From an uncultured Candidatus Saccharibacteria bacterium (GTDB lineage Bacteria > Patescibacteriota > Minisyncoccia > Phycocordibacterales > SBAW01), in NCBI GenBank assembly GCA_964650645.1, contig CAZYUH010000001.1, positions 283,032-347,031 on the forward strand: DNA of 64,000 nt, written 5' to 3'. Below the pieces are notes generated by a model. The model saw only the letters and a program-made list of their open reading frames with translations, had not been told where the DNA came from and made no database searches. This document shows, in pieces, positions 15,999 to 62,993 of the stretch. Each line of letters begins with the position of its first letter. Within the stretch, counting starts at the first letter, position 1. The position numbers were made by a program, and so were the translations under genes.

Positions 15999-16425
15999 CA
16001 AATCAGACACAAAACCAGCCCTGCGGCTGGTTTTGTGCTATTTGTGAGCCGGAGCGATGATTCGCCAGCGGGCGAATCCGCGAGGCAGGGTCGTGCGGCA
16101 ATGCGCGCGACGGCGCGCATTGAACGCCTGACCAAAAGACACAAAGAACCGCCTTGAGGCGGTTTTTGTGCTTATGTGCTGGCCGAAGCCATGTCCTGCA
16201 CTTGCAGGACGGCGAGGCGGGGTCGCGAGGCGTTTGCGCGACGGTGCAAACGAACTCGTGACCACAAAAAACACAAAACCAGCCCTGCGGCTGGTTTTGT
16301 GCTATTTGTGAGCCGGAGCGATGATTCGCCAGCGGGCGAATCCGCGAGGCAGGGTCGTGCGGCAATGCGCGCGACGGCGCGCATTGAACGCCTGACCAAA
16401 AGACACAAAACCGCCTTGAGGCGGT
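15996..16425 (+). repeat. Modular array T-E-T-E-T-E-T. Terminator-like hairpin modules (ACACAAA-stem-loop-stem-TTTGTGCT) alternate with hairpin elements B (16033..16124), C (16165..16254) and B' (16296..16387). Segments 15996..16124 and 16260..16387 are near-identical direct repeats.
   Basis: Each E module is GCCGGAGCG, a variable hairpin with an ACTTGC-type loop, the conserved core hairpin CGCGA-GGCRGGG-TCGYG, a variable hairpin with a GACG-type loop, then GAACNCNTGACCA. Stems differ between copies through compensatory changes. Confidence 0.8.
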
Positions 16426-51710: not shown

Positions 51711-51828
51711 ACGGCTAGTATACCGCCGTATTTCACCGCTATTCCCGCATACCGGCGGTACTGCGGCAGTGTGTGGATAAGGAGGCGCAGGCGTTCCGTG
51801 GGAGAGTATAGTTACAAGTGACGCTAGT

Positions 51829-52431
51829 ATGAATACTTTTAATATTGTCTCCCGTGTTTTTGCGGTACTGGCAGTGGCGGCGATAGCCGCCCCCGTTGCG
51901 GCATGGACCGGCCCCAGCACGGCGCCTCCCGGCGGCAACGTGGCGGCGCCTATCAACGTGGGCGGCACGGCGCAAGCGAAGAGCGGCTCCTTGATCCTTA
52001 ATGGCAATTCGGGAACATATCCCCTTAACGTCAGCGGGTGGGCGAGCCAGTGGACTGCTTTATTCAATTGGCCGCCCTCCTCTGCCCCCGCAAGCAGCTA
52101 TGGCATCCTCGTAGGCACAAGTGCAGGCGGCTACTCGCTATTCCAGAATGCTTCAGGATATTATGCCCAGCTTGCCCAAAGCAGCTACGGCCTATACACC
52201 AACGGGAACGTGTACGCGTCCGACGTGTATAGTTCCGCTGCGGGCATATGGATGAGTACGCTGGTCGCCAACAACCCGCGCAACGGCGGGCAGTACTGGT
52301 ACGGCGCGTACAGCTATATCCCTAACCCCGCGACCGGCGGATACAGCTGCCCCTCCGGGTTCTCCGCGTACGGGCCGTACACGATAGACATGTCGGACGG
52401 ACACTTCTCGTACACGTATATGTGCCGATAA
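51829..52431 (+). CDS. Secreted Gly/Tyr/Ser-rich protein, hypothetical
   Basis: A signal peptide (MNTFNIVSRVFAVLAVAAIAAPVAA) followed by low-complexity Tyr-rich sequence. Confidence 0.5.
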   Translation: MNTFNIVSRVFAVLAVAAIAAPVAAWTGPSTAPPGGNVAAPINVGGTAQAKSGSLILNGNSGTYPLNVSGWASQWTALFNWPPSSAPASSYGILVGTSAGGYSLFQNASGYYAQLAQSSYGLYTNGNVYASDVYSSAAGIWMSTLVANNPRNGGQYWYGAYSYIPNPATGGYSCPSGFSAYGPYTIDMSDGHFSYTYMCR

Positions 52432-56958: not shown

Positions 56959-57303
56959 CTACAGTGTAACCGGGCAATACGTTAATAAAGTGAACGAGAC
57001 GCGCTTCTGCGTCTGCCGGCCGAACCGGTCCGTGGCCAGCACGGTGGCGACAGTATACCCCACGGGAGGGGAATAGCGGTACACAAATCGGCCCTCCTCG
57101 TTTGCCGCGGCCGCATGGCCGTTTATGGTCAGAAAAGAGATGTTCTCGACGCGGCCTGAAATGGTCACGAGGGAAGTGGAGGTGGCCGACCCGTCTATGG
57201 GGGAGTCTATGACAAGCTCCGGCCCGGATATGATGCGCCGGGCCTCGAACAGGGCGTAGCCCGCGATGAGGACGAGGGCGGCGATGACGAGCAGGCGTTT
57301 CAC
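56959..57303 (-). CDS. Small secreted protein, hypothetical
   Basis: A signal peptide (MKRLLVIAALVLIAGYA) and a total of 114 aa. Confidence 0.4.
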   Translation of the reverse strand: MKRLLVIAALVLIAGYALFEARRIISGPELVIDSPIDGSATSTSLVTISGRVENISFLTINGHAAAANEEGRFVYRYSPPVGYTVATVLATDRFGRQTQKRVSFTLLTYCPVTL

Positions 57304-57316
57304 TCAGCCAGTATAC

Positions 57317-59569
57317 CTACAACGCCTCTTCCGGGGAGGGGGCGGCCGCGGGTGCGGGGCCGGCGCCCTTGTCCAATATGTCGCGGGGCTTGGCGCCGTT
57401 TGCCGGGCCTATGACGCCTTTCGCCTCGAGCGCGTCCATGATGCGCGCCGCGCGCGCGTACCCGATGCTGAGCCGCCGCTGCAGGAACGAGGTGGAGGCC
57501 TTGCCGCTTTCAACGACCACGCGGCGCGCCTGCTCGACCATGTCGTCGTCCACGTCCTCATCGTCGCCGAAGCCGCCGCTCGAGCCGCCCGCGGACGAGC
57601 CCAGGCCCACGCCGTCCGAGCCCTGCTGGGCGGGCGCTATCTCGACCGGCACCTCGGCCTCGTTGTTGTCGGCGATGAAGTCCACAATCTTCTTCACCTC
57701 CGCCTCGCTTACGAACGCGTTCTGGAGGCGCACCGGCTTGTTCATGTCGGCCGACAGGTACAGCATGTCGCCCGCGCCCAAAAGGCTCTCGGCGCCGCCC
57801 TGGTCGAGTATCGTGCGGCTGTCTATCTGGCTGGCGACCTGCAAGGCGATGCGGGCGGGCACGTTGGCCTTAATAAGGCCCGTGATGACGTTAACGGAGG
57901 GGCGCTGGGTCGAGAGTATGAGGTGTATGCCCACGGCGCGCGACATCTGCGCCAGGCGCACGATGCCGGCCTCCAGCTCGCGCGGGTAGCTCTGCATGAT
58001 GTCGGCAAGCTCGTCTATGACGATGACGATGTAGGGCATGGCCTCGGGGACCGGCTCGCCCTCAGTCGCGCCCTGCTTCTTTATCTTTTCAAGCTGGGGC
58101 GCCAGCACGGTGGTGTGGTACGACTCGATGTCGCGCACGCGGTGCTCCTCAAGCAGGTTGTAGCGCCGCTCCATTTCCTTGCCGGCCCAGCGCAGGGCCA
58201 TAATCGCCTTCTTGGCATCGGTGATGACGGGGGTCAGAAGGTGGGGAAGCGAGCGGTACAGGGTAAGTTCCACGCGCTTGGGGTCGATGAATATGAAGCG
58301 AAGCTGCGAGGGGCCGCACCTATAAAGAAGGGAGGTGATGATGGTATGGATGGCGACCGACTTGCCCGAGCCGGTGGCGCCCGCAATGAGCGCGTGCGGC
58401 ATTTTTGCCACGTTAGAAAACAGCGAGCCGCCCGCAATGTCGCGCCCGAGCGCCACCATGAGCGGCTTGTGCGAGTCCTGGAACTCGGAGGCCTCCAGGA
58501 GCGTGCCGAGGCCCACGGTCACTTTGGCCGAGTTGGGGACCTCGATGCCTACCAGCGCCTTGCCGGGTATGGGCGCCTCGATGCGGATGCCGCCCTTTGC
58601 GGCCAGGGCAAGGGCGAGGTTCTGCTGGAGCGCGACTATTTTAGAAAGCCGCACGCCCTCGGCCGGCTTTATGGCGTAGCGCGTGACCGACGGGCCTATG
58701 GATATCTCGTCGAGCTCTATCTGCACGCCGAAGTTGGCCAGCGTGCGCTTGATGATGTTGGCGTTCCCTTTTATGTCGCCGACGCCCGGGCGGCCCTTGT
58801 CGCGCTCAAGAAGCGACAGGGGCGGGGGCGTATATGTGCCCAAAAGGGACTTCAGCGAGAGCGCGGCGGCCTTGGCCTGCTGTGCGGCCGTATCCACCTT
58901 GGCTGCGGCCGCGGCCATGGCCGGGCGCGGCGGCACCGGCTCGCCGGCTTGGGCGGGCTCGGGCCTCTGGGCCGCTCCGGCATCTTCTTCGTCCTCGTCC
59001 TCCTCTCCGGTAAAGCCTGTTACGACAGGCTCGCCGCCTGCCTCCTTTTTGCGCCACAGCGACGACACGAGCGCCCATGCGCCCGCGAAGGGCTGCATGC
59101 TGATGCGCCCCTCAAGCAATAAGAGGAGCGATATGAGGAGCAGGCCGCCGAGCCCGATGACCGCCGCGTATATATCGAAGTACTTGACCGCCGGGTCGGC
59201 TATGGCCCGGCCGAAGAACCCTCCCTTGCCTGACACTATCTGTATGAACCCGAGCCCGGTGACCAAAAAGAGCACGCTCGATACGAGCTTGAGCGGGCCC
59301 ACGCTCGGGCGTTCCTCGCGCAGGGCCGCCCCGCCGAGCATGAAGAAGAGTATAGGCAGAAGGAAGTACCCGACGCCCAGGAGGTTGCCGAACAGTATGT
59401 AGGCGTCCGAGCCCGCGGGCCCGGCGGCGCCGAACCCCGCCAGGGTAAGCACCGCGCCCACAATAATAAGGAGCACTGCCACTATGGCCCTGAAGGTGTC
59501 TTTGGGTACGCTGGCAAGCGGCTTCTTGCCGGAGGAGGACTTGCCGTTCTTCTTTGCCATGATGTGCAA
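57317..59569 (-). CDS. ftsK: DNA translocase FtsK/SpoIIIE
   Basis: N-terminal TM helices, a Pro/Ala linker, a motor domain (GATGSGKSV, and DELAD for Walker B), and a C-terminal gamma wHTH. Confidence 0.85.
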   Translation of the reverse strand: MHIMAKKNGKSSSGKKPLASVPKDTFRAIVAVLLIIVGAVLTLAGFGAAGPAGSDAYILFGNLLGVGYFLLPILFFMLGGAALREERPSVGPLKLVSSVLFLVTGLGFIQIVSGKGGFFGRAIADPAVKYFDIYAAVIGLGGLLLISLLLLLEGRISMQPFAGAWALVSSLWRKKEAGGEPVVTGFTGEEDEDEEDAGAAQRPEPAQAGEPVPPRPAMAAAAAKVDTAAQQAKAAALSLKSLLGTYTPPPLSLLERDKGRPGVGDIKGNANIIKRTLANFGVQIELDEISIGPSVTRYAIKPAEGVRLSKIVALQQNLALALAAKGGIRIEAPIPGKALVGIEVPNSAKVTVGLGTLLEASEFQDSHKPLMVALGRDIAGGSLFSNVAKMPHALIAGATGSGKSVAIHTIITSLLYRCGPSQLRFIFIDPKRVELTLYRSLPHLLTPVITDAKKAIMALRWAGKEMERRYNLLEEHRVRDIESYHTTVLAPQLEKIKKQGATEGEPVPEAMPYIVIVIDELADIMQSYPRELEAGIVRLAQMSRAVGIHLILSTQRPSVNVITGLIKANVPARIALQVASQIDSRTILDQGGAESLLGAGDMLYLSADMNKPVRLQNAFVSEAEVKKIVDFIADNNEAEVPVEIAPAQQGSDGVGLGSSAGGSSGGFGDDEDVDDDMVEQARRVVVESGKASTSFLQRRLSIGYARAARIMDALEAKGVIGPANGAKPRDILDKGAGPAPAAAPSPEEAL

Positions 59570-59697
59570 ATAATACCATGGGCGCGCCTCAAAATTCCGT
59601 ACCCTTTAAAGCTTGCCTCCGGCACGCGCGGCCTAATGGCGAACCTTGTCTTTGGGCGCTCCCTTGCTACACTTAGGGACATACTCTGTCCAATAAA

Positions 59698-59717
59698 GTC
59701 CTTTAAATGTAAAGGAC
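59698..59717. promoter_or_regulatory. Perfect palindrome GTCCTTTaaatgtAAAGGAC; a candidate operator for the adjacent wHTH protein
   Basis: An inverted repeat of the AAAGGAC half-site. A second palindrome TCCTTTttAAAGGA lies at 59801..59814, and AAAGGTCAAAA direct repeats at 59742..59775. Confidence 0.5.
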
Positions 59718-59754
59718 AACATACAGACAACGGAGCGCAATAAAGGTCAAAAGA

Positions 59755-60471
59755 ATGTCAGACAAAAGGTCAAAATTCCATGAATTCGCTTTAAAATCAA
59801 TCCTTTTTAAAGGACGCTATGACTGGTATTTCTGTTACCTAAAAACTGAGAAAATAGCCCATGTGCTCGCGGTGCTGGAGCGCAGGGTGGAGGGAGGCGA
59901 GGGCCGTGTCCAGGAAATAGCGACCCGCGCCGCCGCCTTGCCCGGCGACATCGCCCACTTGGCCGCCGGCGAAATAGACGCGCCGGTGGTGCTTGCGGAT
60001 ATATTCTCGCTCCTGTGCGCGGTGCGCCTGGCCACGACGGAAGAGCTTATCCATAAGGAAACCGGCTCTATTTTAGAGTCCGAGTACGAAGCCGTGGCCG
60101 AACGGCTCATGGCGGGGAGCCACCCGTCGCCGTTCGTCAGGGTAGAGGACTTCCATGTGCCGCACCTCTCGCTTGAAAGCGGCCACACACGCATAACGGA
60201 CGACGACATGCCGCATACTGTCTTTGAGCGTCCTATAAAACAGGACACCCGAAAAGGACAATCAGGCGAGCCATATAAAGGACAAAATGAGCGGGCTGAG
60301 CGCATTCTTGACTATATCCGCCTTAAGAAGAGCGTCTCTATAAAAGAAATTGCCGCAACTATAAAGGGGTGTAGTGAAAAGACTATTCAGCGCGAGCTCA
60401 TACTATTAATACAGAAGGGGCTAGTGCGGCGGGTAGGCGAGCGTCGTTGGAGCCAGTACGAGCCTGTCTAA
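59755..60471 (+). CDS. Winged-HTH (DeoR/Rep-like) DNA-binding protein in a low-GC islet; possible autoregulator or replication-initiator-like protein. The start is uncertain, and a GTG near 59866 is an alternative.
   Basis: A C-terminal wHTH (VSIKEIAATIKGCSEKTIQRELILLIQKGLVRRV). AAAGGAC palindromes and direct repeats sit upstream and inside the 5' end. Local GC content drops markedly. Confidence 0.5.
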   Translation: MSDKRSKFHEFALKSILFKGRYDWYFCYLKTEKIAHVLAVLERRVEGGEGRVQEIATRAAALPGDIAHLAAGEIDAPVVLADIFSLLCAVRLATTEELIHKETGSILESEYEAVAERLMAGSHPSPFVRVEDFHVPHLSLESGHTRITDDDMPHTVFERPIKQDTRKGQSGEPYKGQNERAERILDYIRLKKSVSIKEIAATIKGCSEKTIQRELILLIQKGLVRRVGERRWSQYEPV

Positions 60472-60875
60472 GAATAAGCGCTTAAAATCGAGGCAGGCGT
60501 ACGGCTTTACAACAACACACGCTATTTATTTTGTCTATTGCCTCCAAGGTTCCGCTGATGTAGGGTAGGCGGGTCCTCTGGACCTTGGGTAACGGGCTGT
60601 TGAGAGCCTTCAAGTGAGGGTCCTCCAGTCTAAAAATCCAATACGCTTTACGCGCGTTGTCCACAGGGCGTGTGCGTTCGCCTTTAATTGCTCAGCTATA
60701 CTACTGAGTGACCTCTGAGTTAGAGGGGCGCGTTCGTTGACAATTGCCCTGCATACATACTCCCGCTTCACCTTGTCCCGTCACGGAAAGATTACGACTG
60801 ATACTCCGTCTACATTTTTGCTACCCAACCTCCTGCCCGAAGAGTCGAGAGGCTCCACAGCAGGGGAGGTAGAAC

Positions 60876-62993
60876 ATGTTCTACGTGCGGTTCGATTACT
60901 CGTGTTTACCAGTAATTATTCGTTGCAGTAAGAAGATTATGACTATTACCAACAGCTCCACCCGCCTCGCTGCGCTCGTCGCAGGCGTCGCAGTTGCTAT
61001 CGCGCTCATGGGCGCAGTTGCAGTTGCTCCGGCGCAGGCCGCAGGCCTTTCGGCCTCGCAGGTCCAGGCAATCGTATCCCTGCTCGCATCGTTCGGTGCT
61101 GACCAGGCTACGATAAGCAACGTTACCGCGGCCCTCAACGGCCAGGCAACGACGGGCACTGGCTCCACCGGCGGTTCCACCACCGGCGGCACCTGCCCGG
61201 TCCTTACCCGCTCCCTTCAGTTGGGCTCCACTGGCGCGGACGTCCTGTCCCTCCAGCAGTTCCTCAACGCTAACGCAAGCACCCGCGTATCGGTATCCGG
61301 CGCAGGCTCTCCCGGCATGGAGACCACCTACTTCGGCCCGGCTACCCAGGCTGCGGTTATCAAGTTCCAGGCCGCTAACAACGTCTCCGCAATCGGCGTA
61401 GTCGGTCCGGCTACCCGTGCGGCTATCGCGGCAGTCTGCGGCACGACCGGCGGTTCTACCGGCGGCTCGACCGGCGGCAGCACCGGCGGTTCTACCGGCG
61501 GCGCCCTCTCGGGCGGCGAGGCGGACCTCCGCGACTTCGACCTCATCTCGGGCGACGACCTCATGGAGGGCGACTCGAACGTTGAGATCGCTGTTGCTCG
61601 CTTCGATGTCGACGGCGGCGATGCCCAGGTGCAGCGCGTAACCCTCGACTTCCAGGCCACCAATGGCAGCCTTGAGGAGCAGCCGTGGAAGTTCATCGAC
61701 ACGCTCGCCGTCTACAACGGCAGCACCAAGGTGGGCTCGGTTGACGCCTCCTCGAAGTCCGACTGGGACAAGGAGGATGATGACGCCGACCACGCTGGCT
61801 CGGTCGACTTCTACACCATCGACATCCCGGTCAACACGATCATCCGCGAGGATGACCGCGCAGAGCTCTCTATCCGCGCTGACGCGCAGAGCAACATCGA
61901 TGATGCTGACGAGGCTCAGACCTTCTATGTCCAGGTTCCGACCGACGGCATCCGCGCTGTCGATGCCAAGGGCATCCAGCAGTACACCGGCGACGGTGAG
62001 GAGGTTACCCTCGGCTTCGATGCCGCAGAGAACGGCGACATCACCATCCGCGAGACCTCTGACAACCCTGACGCGACCGTGCTTGTTGCTGACAGCGATG
62101 AGACTTCGAATGAGTTCACCGTCCTCGCGGGCGAGTTCAAGAACGATGATGACGCTGACGCGCTCCTCAACAGCTTGACCTTCCAGGTTGCGACTTCGTC
62201 CGCTACCGGCGGCGCAGGCGACATCAGCGATATCATCCGCACCGCTACCCTTACGGTAGACGGCGATGACTTCGACTGCGATGTCAATGCGAACAACACC
62301 GTTGACTGCGATGACCTCGACGTTACCCTCGCGGGCGACGACACGACGGACTTCTCGCTCGCTATCGAGCTCTTCGCTCAGAGCGGCCGCTACGCTGCGA
62401 CCGGTGAGTCCCTCACCTTCTCGCTCGCGAACGCCGATGCTGATATCGAGGGCGAGGACACTGGCGATGCTTCGACCAAGTCCGGCTCCGTACAGGGCGA
62501 GCAGCAGTCCATCACGACTGATGCTGGCATCAACGTAGCAGGCAGCACGATGAGCGGCGCTGAGACCTACAACAGCACTTCTCCGGCAAGCAGCTACGGT
62601 ACCTTCACCCTGAAGTTCAGCGTCACCGCAGACGGCGATGATGTGTACATTCCTAAGACCGTTGGCGATAGCGTTACGACCGCTTCTACCACTTACCTCG
62701 GCGTAATAGTGGATACGGACATCAACGCTTCGTCCACCTCTTCGGGTGTTACCACGTCGGTCACCTCGACTGCTGACTCTGAGAACTCCATGTTCTACGT
62801 CATCCACGACGGCGACTCGGAGACCTTCACGATCAGCGTCCGCATCGATCCGACCGATACTGGCTTCTACCAGGTCGGCCTCGACAAGGTCCGCTTCTCG
62901 ACCACGGCTACCGACCTCAACAGTCTCCAGACTCTCGAGGTTGACCAGACCAAGGACGAGTTCCAGACCAGCCCGGTCAGCATCTCTAACTAA
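60876..62993 (+). CDS. Cell-surface protein: signal peptide, a peptidoglycan-binding (PG_binding_1-like) domain, a GGSTGG linker, and a long acidic Asp-rich beta-repeat region
   Basis: The ATG at 60876 has a perfect GGGGAGG SD. An alternative start at 60939 would give a canonical signal peptide (MTITNSSTRLAALVAGVAVAIALMGAVAVAPAQA). The PG-binding motif is LQQFLNANAS...YFGPATQAAVIKFQAAN. Confidence 0.6.
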   Translation: MFYVRFDYSCLPVIIRCSKKIMTITNSSTRLAALVAGVAVAIALMGAVAVAPAQAAGLSASQVQAIVSLLASFGADQATISNVTAALNGQATTGTGSTGGSTTGGTCPVLTRSLQLGSTGADVLSLQQFLNANASTRVSVSGAGSPGMETTYFGPATQAAVIKFQAANNVSAIGVVGPATRAAIAAVCGTTGGSTGGSTGGSTGGSTGGALSGGEADLRDFDLISGDDLMEGDSNVEIAVARFDVDGGDAQVQRVTLDFQATNGSLEEQPWKFIDTLAVYNGSTKVGSVDASSKSDWDKEDDDADHAGSVDFYTIDIPVNTIIREDDRAELSIRADAQSNIDDADEAQTFYVQVPTDGIRAVDAKGIQQYTGDGEEVTLGFDAAENGDITIRETSDNPDATVLVADSDETSNEFTVLAGEFKNDDDADALLNSLTFQVATSSATGGAGDISDIIRTATLTVDGDDFDCDVNANNTVDCDDLDVTLAGDDTTDFSLAIELFAQSGRYAATGESLTFSLANADADIEGEDTGDASTKSGSVQGEQQSITTDAGINVAGSTMSGAETYNSTSPASSYGTFTLKFSVTADGDDVYIPKTVGDSVTTASTTYLGVIVDTDINASSTSSGVTTSVTSTADSENSMFYVIHDGDSETFTISVRIDPTDTGFYQVGLDKVRFSTTATDLNSLQTLEVDQTKDEFQTSPVSISN
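61445..61504 (+). repeat. 12-bp tandem repeats (accggcggttct x5) encoding a (TGGS)n linker
   Basis: A direct tandem repeat inside the surface protein gene. A shorter copy sits at 61150..61195. Confidence 0.75.

Follow-up and report, generated by a model that had tools for sequence, protein, structure and literature searches.

CtsR, the class III stress repressor of the Firmicutes, binds tandem heptads (A/GGTCAAA-NAN-A/GGTCAAA), and MraZ, the product of the first dcw gene, is autoregulated and binds short direct repeats spaced about 10 bp apart in its own promoter. Auxiliary operators can also be intragenic, as with LacI O2 at +401 in lacZ and GalR OI in galE, DeoR loops DNA between multiple operators, and parS can lie inside spo0J. 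We analyzed a 64,000-nucleotide (nt) stretch of contig CAZYUH010000001.1 (hereafter the window), in which a gene for a 238-residue protein with a C-terminal winged helix-turn-helix (wHTH) lies between ftsK and a gene for a PG_binding_1 surface protein (Table 1). This low-GC locus is a vertically inherited core locus of the Paceibacteria, in the candidate phyla radiation, and is not foreign DNA. Judging from its structural model, the protein is an uncharacterized putative regulator composed of a four-helix bundle, a linker and a wHTH. Copies of a 9-bp motif lie over the inferred promoter of the gene and again within its codons, and we estimate, from sequence conservation, a probability of about 0.6 that the protein represses its own promoter through these promoter and intragenic operator arrays, that is, by negative autoregulation.

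The closest analogues of the wHTH locus are functional and not homologous. CtsR likewise combines a winged HTH with a four-helix bundle, and its repeats lie over the -35, the -10 and the transcription start site (TSS), its own operon included; the window also has two copies of GGTCAAA (59744 and 59767). However, the wHTH of CtsR is N-terminal, whereas the domain order is reversed in the window protein, which has no Pfam or NCBIfam match to CtsR (PF05848/PF17727), and the window motif has a GACA core with a TAAA flank, occurs in about ten copies, some of them intragenic, and has ftsK and recA as neighbors rather than clp. With LacI, GalR and DeoR the locus shares an operator on the core promoter and a second one inside a gene (here about 500-550 bp downstream), presumed to be bridged by an oligomer. 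It differs from them in that the second is an array of two to five copies, in two frames and class-wide, placed in the codons of the repressor's own disordered linker, and there is no sequence relation to their effector domains. MraZ resembles the window protein as a small conserved DNA-binding protein with a fixed place beside division genes and a series of repeats, but it has a SpoVT/AbrB-like fold, its repeats are upstream only, and it heads its own operon, whereas the wHTH gene is divergent from ftsK. ParB/Spo0J with parS and TubR with tubC also pair an HTH or wHTH protein with clustered sites, possibly in its own gene, and TubR binds arrays of direct repeats; the window locus differs in having neither a partner NTPase gene nor a ParB or TubR sequence signal, and in having sites that overlap the promoter. 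What appears to be new here is the protein family, together with a presumptive operator array that is conserved, in two frames, within the codons specifying the family's own disordered linker.

The window was compared with related loci made up of the contigs of three relatives and 80 loci from one-genome-per-species contigs; gene order was followed over 84 loci and motif counts over 83. All 84 fetched loci have the same order, with recA, a 114-residue open reading frame (orf114) and ftsK on one strand and, divergent from them, the wHTH gene, a gap of 350-560 bp and the PG_binding surface protein gene. Protein identity in these loci ranges from 24 to 94%, and the order is kept at identities as low as 24-30% (Nomura-, Taylor- and Zambryskibacteria and others; Adlerbacteria are also covered). 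The 718 relatives found in databases are at most 94% identical, and the named ones all belong to Candidatus Adlerbacteria or Paceibacterota; at least 582 species genomes carry a relative. The first-pass annotation had noticed a sharp drop in GC between ftsK and the surface protein gene, and this was confirmed: against a window mean of 62.7% (standard deviation 0.037 for 400-nt windows), 400-nt windows below 53% GC start only between 59401 and 60601, spanning about 59.4-61.0 kb, which is the sole such stretch, and the minimum of 46.8% lies more than 4 standard deviations under the mean. The same trough is seen in all relatives, where the wHTH gene lies 5-10 points, and the two intergenic regions 8-20 points, below ftsK and the surface protein gene; the trough is therefore ancestral. 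We attribute the low GC to two long AT-rich regulatory intergenic regions, AT-rich motif copies and the Lys/Ile-rich wHTH rather than to recent transfer.

The palindromes and direct repeats that had been reported around the start of the gene were all found, and a single 9-bp motif, TAAARGACA, accounts for the repeats. When one mismatch is allowed, this motif has 25 matches in the 64 kb compared with 7.9 +/- 2.9 in shuffled sequence (none of 100 shuffles reached 25), and eight of the 25, including both perfect ones, lie within 59697-60349. Exact copies of AAAGGACAA occur at 59711, 60253 and 60277; of the three that had been claimed for 60229-60290, two are thus exact, accompanied by the degenerate forward copy AACAGGACA and two reverse-like copies. 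A position weight matrix (PWM) scan of the window found no second cluster. Equal matches at 16133 and 16397 were set aside as part of an unrelated 139-nt duplication.

Across the 83 loci, A[AG]GACA has a background of about 0.02 copies per 50 nt and only two peaks, which stand about 30-70 times above it. The first occupies the 100 nt that precede the start codon and has 0.8-1.5 forward and 0.2-0.35 reverse copies per 50 nt (2.3 forward and 0.6 reverse per locus at -100 to 0), and the second lies at +450 to +650, with 0.3-0.9 copies per 50 nt, nearly all of them forward (about 2.5 forward per locus). The extended consensus T-A-A-A-R-G-A-C-A is common to the upstream forward, upstream reverse and coding-sequence forward sites, whereas background RGACA sites in ftsK lack TAAA-type flanks, and an unbiased 8-mer enrichment placed TAAAAGAC, TAAAGGAC and AAAGGACA among the top words of both regions. 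Two or more upstream copies are present in 74 of the 83 loci and two or more linker copies in 63, and 61 loci have at least two upstream copies along with at least one in the linker. The wHTH gene and its flanks contain 10.0 motif copies per kb, and the remainder of the loci 0.48 per kb. The first-pass annotation had raised the possibility of a regulon, but no further motif cluster was found in the window, and none recurs at ftsK, orf114, recA or the surface protein gene among the 83 loci.

The intragenic copies sit in an otherwise unconserved linker and use two main frames, ATA-AAG-GAC-A, which encodes [ILV]KD (130 copies), and AAA-GGA-CA[AT], which encodes KG[QH] (88 copies), with 23 copies in the third frame. 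Both main frames often occur within one protein, for example PIKDNNKGHIKD. Codons were counted in loci with a GC content of 50% or more. For KG[QH], AAA encodes Lys in 51 of 55 cases and GGA encodes Gly in 50 of 55, whereas across the remainder of the gene these codons account for 50% and 19%. Among the [ILV]KD copies, 40 of 42 have a first codon ending in TA and all 42 use GAC for Asp, compared with 52% elsewhere. A site described by the same PWM is repeated inside the coding sequence, in two frames and with an extreme synonymous-codon bias, and by this evidence the intragenic copies are constrained as nucleotides and not as amino acids, under what we take to be strong synonymous-codon selection. 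In addition, the invariant N-terminal L-F-K-G is written CTT TTT AAA GGA in 33-35 of 35 GC-rich relatives, so the palindrome at this position (TCCTTTTTAAAGGA), with its motif copy in codons 17-21, is also a conserved nucleotide element. The linker thus offers an unusually clean natural case of overlapping codes, a putative operator array kept in the codons of proteins only 24% identical, and bears on the idea that disordered linkers are "free" sequence space for DNA-level signals. As a separate observation, residues 2-7, which are poorly conserved (consensus MPDxxKK), are often encoded by motif-like DNA (59759-59775 in the window), such as CCG GAC AA.. in many loci and AAA AGG ACA AAT, in the third frame, in locus L001.

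The promoter of the wHTH gene was located by conservation. In 63 of the 83 loci, compared with 2.8 expected from shuffles, RGACA comes 0-5 nt after a -10-like hexamer (TATACT, TACACT, TACTCT or TATAAT), which often has a TG in front of it. These pairs are concentrated 75-90 nt ahead of the start codon; in the window, TACACT (59668-73) is followed by GGGACA (59676-59681). The upstream array begins on this inferred -10 and TSS, fills the 5' untranslated region (UTR) to the start codon and seems to run over it into the first codons. Sites accordingly overlap the gene's own core promoter, and the first of them, over the -10 and predicted TSS, has the classical position of a repressor. In AT-rich members, copies are also found in the -35/-10 spacer and upstream of the -35, and are hence outside the transcript of that promoter. 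The distances from one copy to the next have maxima at 10-13 and 21-24 nt, corresponding to one and two helical turns.

Pfam matches to the 238-residue protein are confined to residues 180-227 (HTH_DeoR, 21.8 bits against a cutoff of 21, and HTH_36), in agreement with the C-terminal wHTH recognized earlier. Its assignment to the DeoR type, a name that some database records also give to relatives ("DeoR family"), finds support in the marginal HTH_DeoR score but fails otherwise: the match to HTH_DeoR (PF08220), an N-terminal domain in that family, is here at the C terminus, and the sugar-phosphate-binding DeoRC domain (PF00455) gave no Pfam match at E <= 0.1 in the window protein or at E <= 1 in three relatives. 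The NCBIfam DeoR, GlpR and AgaR models reach the HTH only, with 12-17 bits against cutoffs of 260-351. With the HTH at the wrong end and no DeoRC domain, the family label is unjustified. The N-terminal domain matched no family in Pfam, NCBIfam, PHROGs or PDB sequence profiles, and literature searches returned no description of the wHTH protein family.

An AlphaFold2 model built from a 17-sequence alignment (mean predicted local distance difference test score, pLDDT, 75) has a four-helix bundle (helices 22-44, 50-70, 76-95 and 101-122, pLDDT about 90), a disordered linker at about 125-174 (pLDDT below 50 over 143-174) that overlaps the intragenic motif array, and a C-terminal wHTH at residues 175-238. 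Foldseek matched the wHTH to the DNA-binding domains of BlaI, MecI, ArsR and HlyU, and the bundle weakly to 2rld, a four-helix-bundle protein of unknown function. An internal isoform consisting of the wHTH only was considered and rejected, as just some of the relatives, and not the window protein, have an in-frame Met after the linker array.

The autoregulated DNA-binding protein of the first-pass annotation is thus supported by arrays that are conserved upstream and in the linker, overlap the inferred -10 and TSS, and are under nucleotide-level selection. In the mechanism that we propose, the four-helix bundle would oligomerize the protein, and flexible linkers would let several wHTH domains reach direct or inverted 9-bp sites at variable spacing, cooperatively. 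The recognition helix (SEKTIQRE) would read GACA in the major groove while the wing would read TAAA in the minor groove. Occupancy of the promoter array would occlude RNA polymerase, and the array downstream would act as an auxiliary operator, by looping, or as an elongation roadblock, giving tight negative autoregulation. As a lesser variant, binding at the linker array may block elongation and yield truncated, bundle-only products that tune the oligomer.

Several observations weigh against this model. Neither the 64 kb nor the roughly 700 kb of related loci showed a second target, an odd situation for a transcription factor. Adjacency and a generic wHTH are what link the motif to the wHTH protein rather than to another factor; all 83 loci, which were fetched with a bias toward the recognition-helix peptide, have an identical helix, leaving no co-evolution signal possible. 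A simple sigma-70/terminator scan did not call the inferred promoters. In the GC-rich clade that includes the window, every site is at or downstream of the predicted TSS, leaving room for a role in RNA, and the coding-sequence sites are almost all on the forward strand, as an RNA reading predicts, although this bias may be explained by the reverse motif, which would encode Cys, Pro, Leu or Phe, a poor fit to a hydrophilic linker.

The last two observations would fit autoregulation at the RNA level, in which copies in the mRNA are bound by the protein itself or by another RNA-binding factor, or pair with reverse copies, and so control translation or decay. The last copy also often abuts or overlaps the start codon, and the window 5' UTR folds somewhat better than shuffles (z = -2.2). 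However, the reverse copies have the same extended consensus as the forward ones, and the purine/pyrimidine (R/Y) positions of the inverted arms show no covariation, 10 of 25 converging pairs being A.C if paired, which argues against selection for RNA hairpins. The copies in the -35/-10 spacer and upstream of the -35 in AT-rich members would be untranscribed, the helical-repeat spacing and the frequent -10 overlap fit a DNA operator, and a sense-strand bias would be expected in any case from the coding constraints on the linker. We regard RNA-level control as unlikely, and the motif probably acts at the DNA level, to judge from these patterns of conservation. Two narrower candidates were also rejected: the 5' UTR palindromes as conserved RNA hairpins, for the same lack of covariation, and a Shine-Dalgarno-like role for AAGGA, since AAGACA stands in its place in many copies and the ATG often follows after 0-2 nt.

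Since adjacency alone ties the protein to the motif, the arrays might instead be read by a different, unlinked factor, such as a global regulator or a protein associated with RNA polymerase, with the wHTH protein recognizing something else; in a minority of copies, the A-rich part of the motif does look like a -10 (TATAAA). This seems quite improbable to us, because the arrays are exclusive to the wHTH gene in all sequence examined, a gene-specific repeated motif at the gene of a DNA-binding protein is the classic signature of autoregulation, and an invariant motif accompanies an invariant recognition helix.

The protein might also coat the array in its own gene as a centromere-like or nucleoid-organizing site and work with FtsK in segregation or terminus handling rather than in gene regulation. 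About ten clustered sites at a single locus with no second target seen, the invariant class-wide pairing with ftsK and recA, and an architecture of wHTH plus oligomerization domain would all suit such a role, TubR is among the weak fold matches (rank 38), and parS within spo0J is a precedent. Yet no gene of ParA, TubZ or ParM type was found within 6 kb on either side in loci L001, L002 and L004, where the called genes are recA, orf114, ftsK, surface proteins, ECF sigma factors, and TPR and SET proteins. In addition, the first sites lie precisely on the -10 and TSS, as a repressor needs, the locus has no dif-like site, and the GC-skew turn there merely follows the coding-strand switch and gives no placement of origin or terminus. 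We give this role little credence, and equally little to its stronger form, in which the array would nucleate a chromosomal nucleoprotein complex, a landmark of a new family comparable to ParB/parS or MatP/matS that acts with FtsK in segregation or dimer handling.

The first-pass annotation had also read the locus as a degraded integrated element, either an integrative mobile element exploiting Xer (IMEX) or a genomic islet, that encodes a Rep-like initiator able to bind iterons and lies beside the dif/terminus region. The composition is indeed atypical, as in a genomic island (GC 0.47-0.53 against 0.627 +/- 0.037), and iteron-like repeats and a wHTH are present. PHROGs gave a single Rep match, 27 residues long (E = 0.031), to a replication initiation protein, and no Rep family was matched in Pfam or NCBIfam. 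Homologues were not found by tblastn in 72,556 plasmids and 50,697 phages, or in IMG/VR. The best local match to the dif of E. coli or B. subtilis has 12-13 mismatches in 28 positions, from which the Paceibacteria consensus may differ, and neither flanking direct repeats nor an adjoining tRNA was found at the locus. We reject the integrated element, together with its initiator and dif site, because synteny and GC trough are conserved in the 84 loci fetched, down to 24% protein identity, rather than patchily, the gene is absent from the plasmid, phage and viral sequences searched, the model has a four-helix bundle and a single wHTH in place of the tandem WH1-WH2 of Rep proteins, and the repeats are only 9 bp long and partly within the gene. 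A sharp GC trough beside ftsK thus need not signal horizontal transfer.

Paceibacteria have tiny genomes, few regulators and almost no experimentally characterized transcription factors. The locus supplies, for the whole class, a predicted DNA-binding protein outside described families, a probable 9-bp motif, an inferred promoter and a prediction of autoregulation. Its features are collected in Table 1.

Table 1. Coordinates of features at the wHTH locus, numbered from the first letter of the window
Feature	Position	Strand	Remarks
ftsK (FtsK_alpha, FtsK_SpoIIIE, FtsK_gamma)	57317..59560	-	Conserved start ATG 59560 (MAKK...), not the mechanically listed TTG 59569
Extended -10 of ftsK, TGGTATTAT	59570..59578	-	Inferred; 9 nt upstream of ATG 59560
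-35-like TTGTCT of wHTH gene	59646..59651	+	Inferred; 16-nt spacer to -10; resembles a reverse motif copy
Extended -10 of wHTH gene, TGCTACACT (TGcTACACT)	59665..59673	+	Inferred; TATACT, TACTCT or TATAAT in orthologues
Converging inverted repeat GGGACA-N5-TGTCC, first putative operator pair	59676..59691	.	At predicted TSS; AAGACA-N5-TGTCTT in relatives
Perfect 20-bp palindrome GTCCTTTAAATGTAAAGGAC	59698-59717	.	Within element 59697..59718
Reverse site TAAAGGACT and perfect forward site TAAAGGACA	59705-59697 and 59710-59718		Compose the palindrome element
Degenerate site ACAGACAA	59723..59730	+	11-13 nt past the preceding site
Direct repeat pair AAAGGTCAAAA	59742-59752, 59765-59775	+	Straddles start codon
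CAGACAA	59759-59765	+	Between the AAAGGTCAAAA copies; element 59741..59775
wHTH protein gene, 238 residues	59755..60471	+	
TCCTTTTTAAAGGACG, codons I16-R21	59801..59816	.	Contains palindrome TCCTTTTTAAAGGA at 59801-59814
Intragenic array, linker codons	60219..60284	+	Reverse-like copies 60219-60227 and 60230-60240
Forward linker copies AACAGGACA, AAAAGGACA, TAAAGGACA	60239-60247, 60252-60260, 60276-60284	+	Last two read KGQ
Degenerate copy ATAAAAGAAAT in SIKEI codons of wHTH	60340..60350	+	ATAAAAGACAT = SIKDI in many relatives
DnaA-box-like TTGTCCACA	60657..60665	+	Upstream of surface protein promoter; identical to DnaA-box consensus
-10 of surface protein gene, TATACT	60697..60702	+	TTGCA-N16/17-TATAAT in relatives
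Non-coding leader of surface protein gene, about 231 nt	60708..60938	+	Conserved blocks
boxA-like GTTCGTTGACAAT	60732-60744	+	In leader
CTACC...GGTAG stem around variable hairpin	60821-60872	+	In leader
PG_binding_1 surface protein gene	60939..62993	+	Conserved start ATGACTATTACC (MTIT...), not ATG 60876

The extended -10 of ftsK lies so close to its ATG that a leaderless or near-leaderless mRNA is implied, and a AATAATACCA block at this -10 is conserved in most related loci. About 90 bp separate the inferred ftsK promoter from the -10 of the wHTH gene, and no motif sites cover the ftsK promoter. In most related loci orf114 (56959-57303, minus strand, in the window) lies between ftsK and recA; it has a weak Glucodextran_B-like Pfam signal in relatives and no NCBIfam match. 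This arrangement suggests a ftsK-orf114-recA operon specific to the Paceibacteria class.

Upstream of the surface protein gene, TT[AG]TCCACA occurs once, on the plus strand, 6-9 nt upstream of the -35 in 72 of the 83 loci, suggesting that the gene may be under DnaA-coupled, cell-cycle control. The only other copy of a TTGVCCACA-type element in the 64 kb is at 51772-51780 (minus strand), just upstream of an open reading frame at 51829..52431. An origin of replication (oriC) at the DnaA-box-like site was rejected, there being a single box per locus and a GC-skew turn that follows the change of coding strand.

Single-nucleotide indels among the conserved blocks of the surface protein leader indicate that it is non-coding; further blocks in it are CATACTCC..CACGGAAAGATTACGACTGATACTCCGTC and TTACTCGTGTTTACCAGTAA. 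A boxA-like TC[GAT]TTGACAA is found in 51 of the 83 loci, against a background of 0.05 per kb, and the leader may possibly be a Nus-factor antitermination leader. The fixed pairing of the wHTH gene with ftsK-orf114-recA and with a surface protein promoter equipped with a DnaA box and boxA points to a conserved cell-cycle or envelope module. A structured leader RNA was rejected, as RNAalifold found only an invariant 5-bp stem without covariation and the minimum free energy was no better than that of shuffles (z = +0.9). Rfam searches of 59300-61300 (E <= 1) and of the whole window (gathering thresholds) found nothing in the locus and only eight tRNAs elsewhere. The leader also contains a perfect 16-bp palindrome, GTAGAACATGTTCTAC (60869-60884), common only to the closest loci (L001, L005 and L016), and the listed ATG at 60876 falls inside it.

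Elsewhere in the window, the 139-nt duplication mentioned above consists of two direct repeats (16007-16145 and 16271-16409) that are 100% identical, 264 nt apart and downstream of a tRNA-Arg(gcg). Terminator-like hairpins (AACCAGCCCTGCGGCTGGTTTTGTGCT) flank each copy, and Rfam gave no match; the repeats may be small RNA genes that were duplicated, or else a repeat element.

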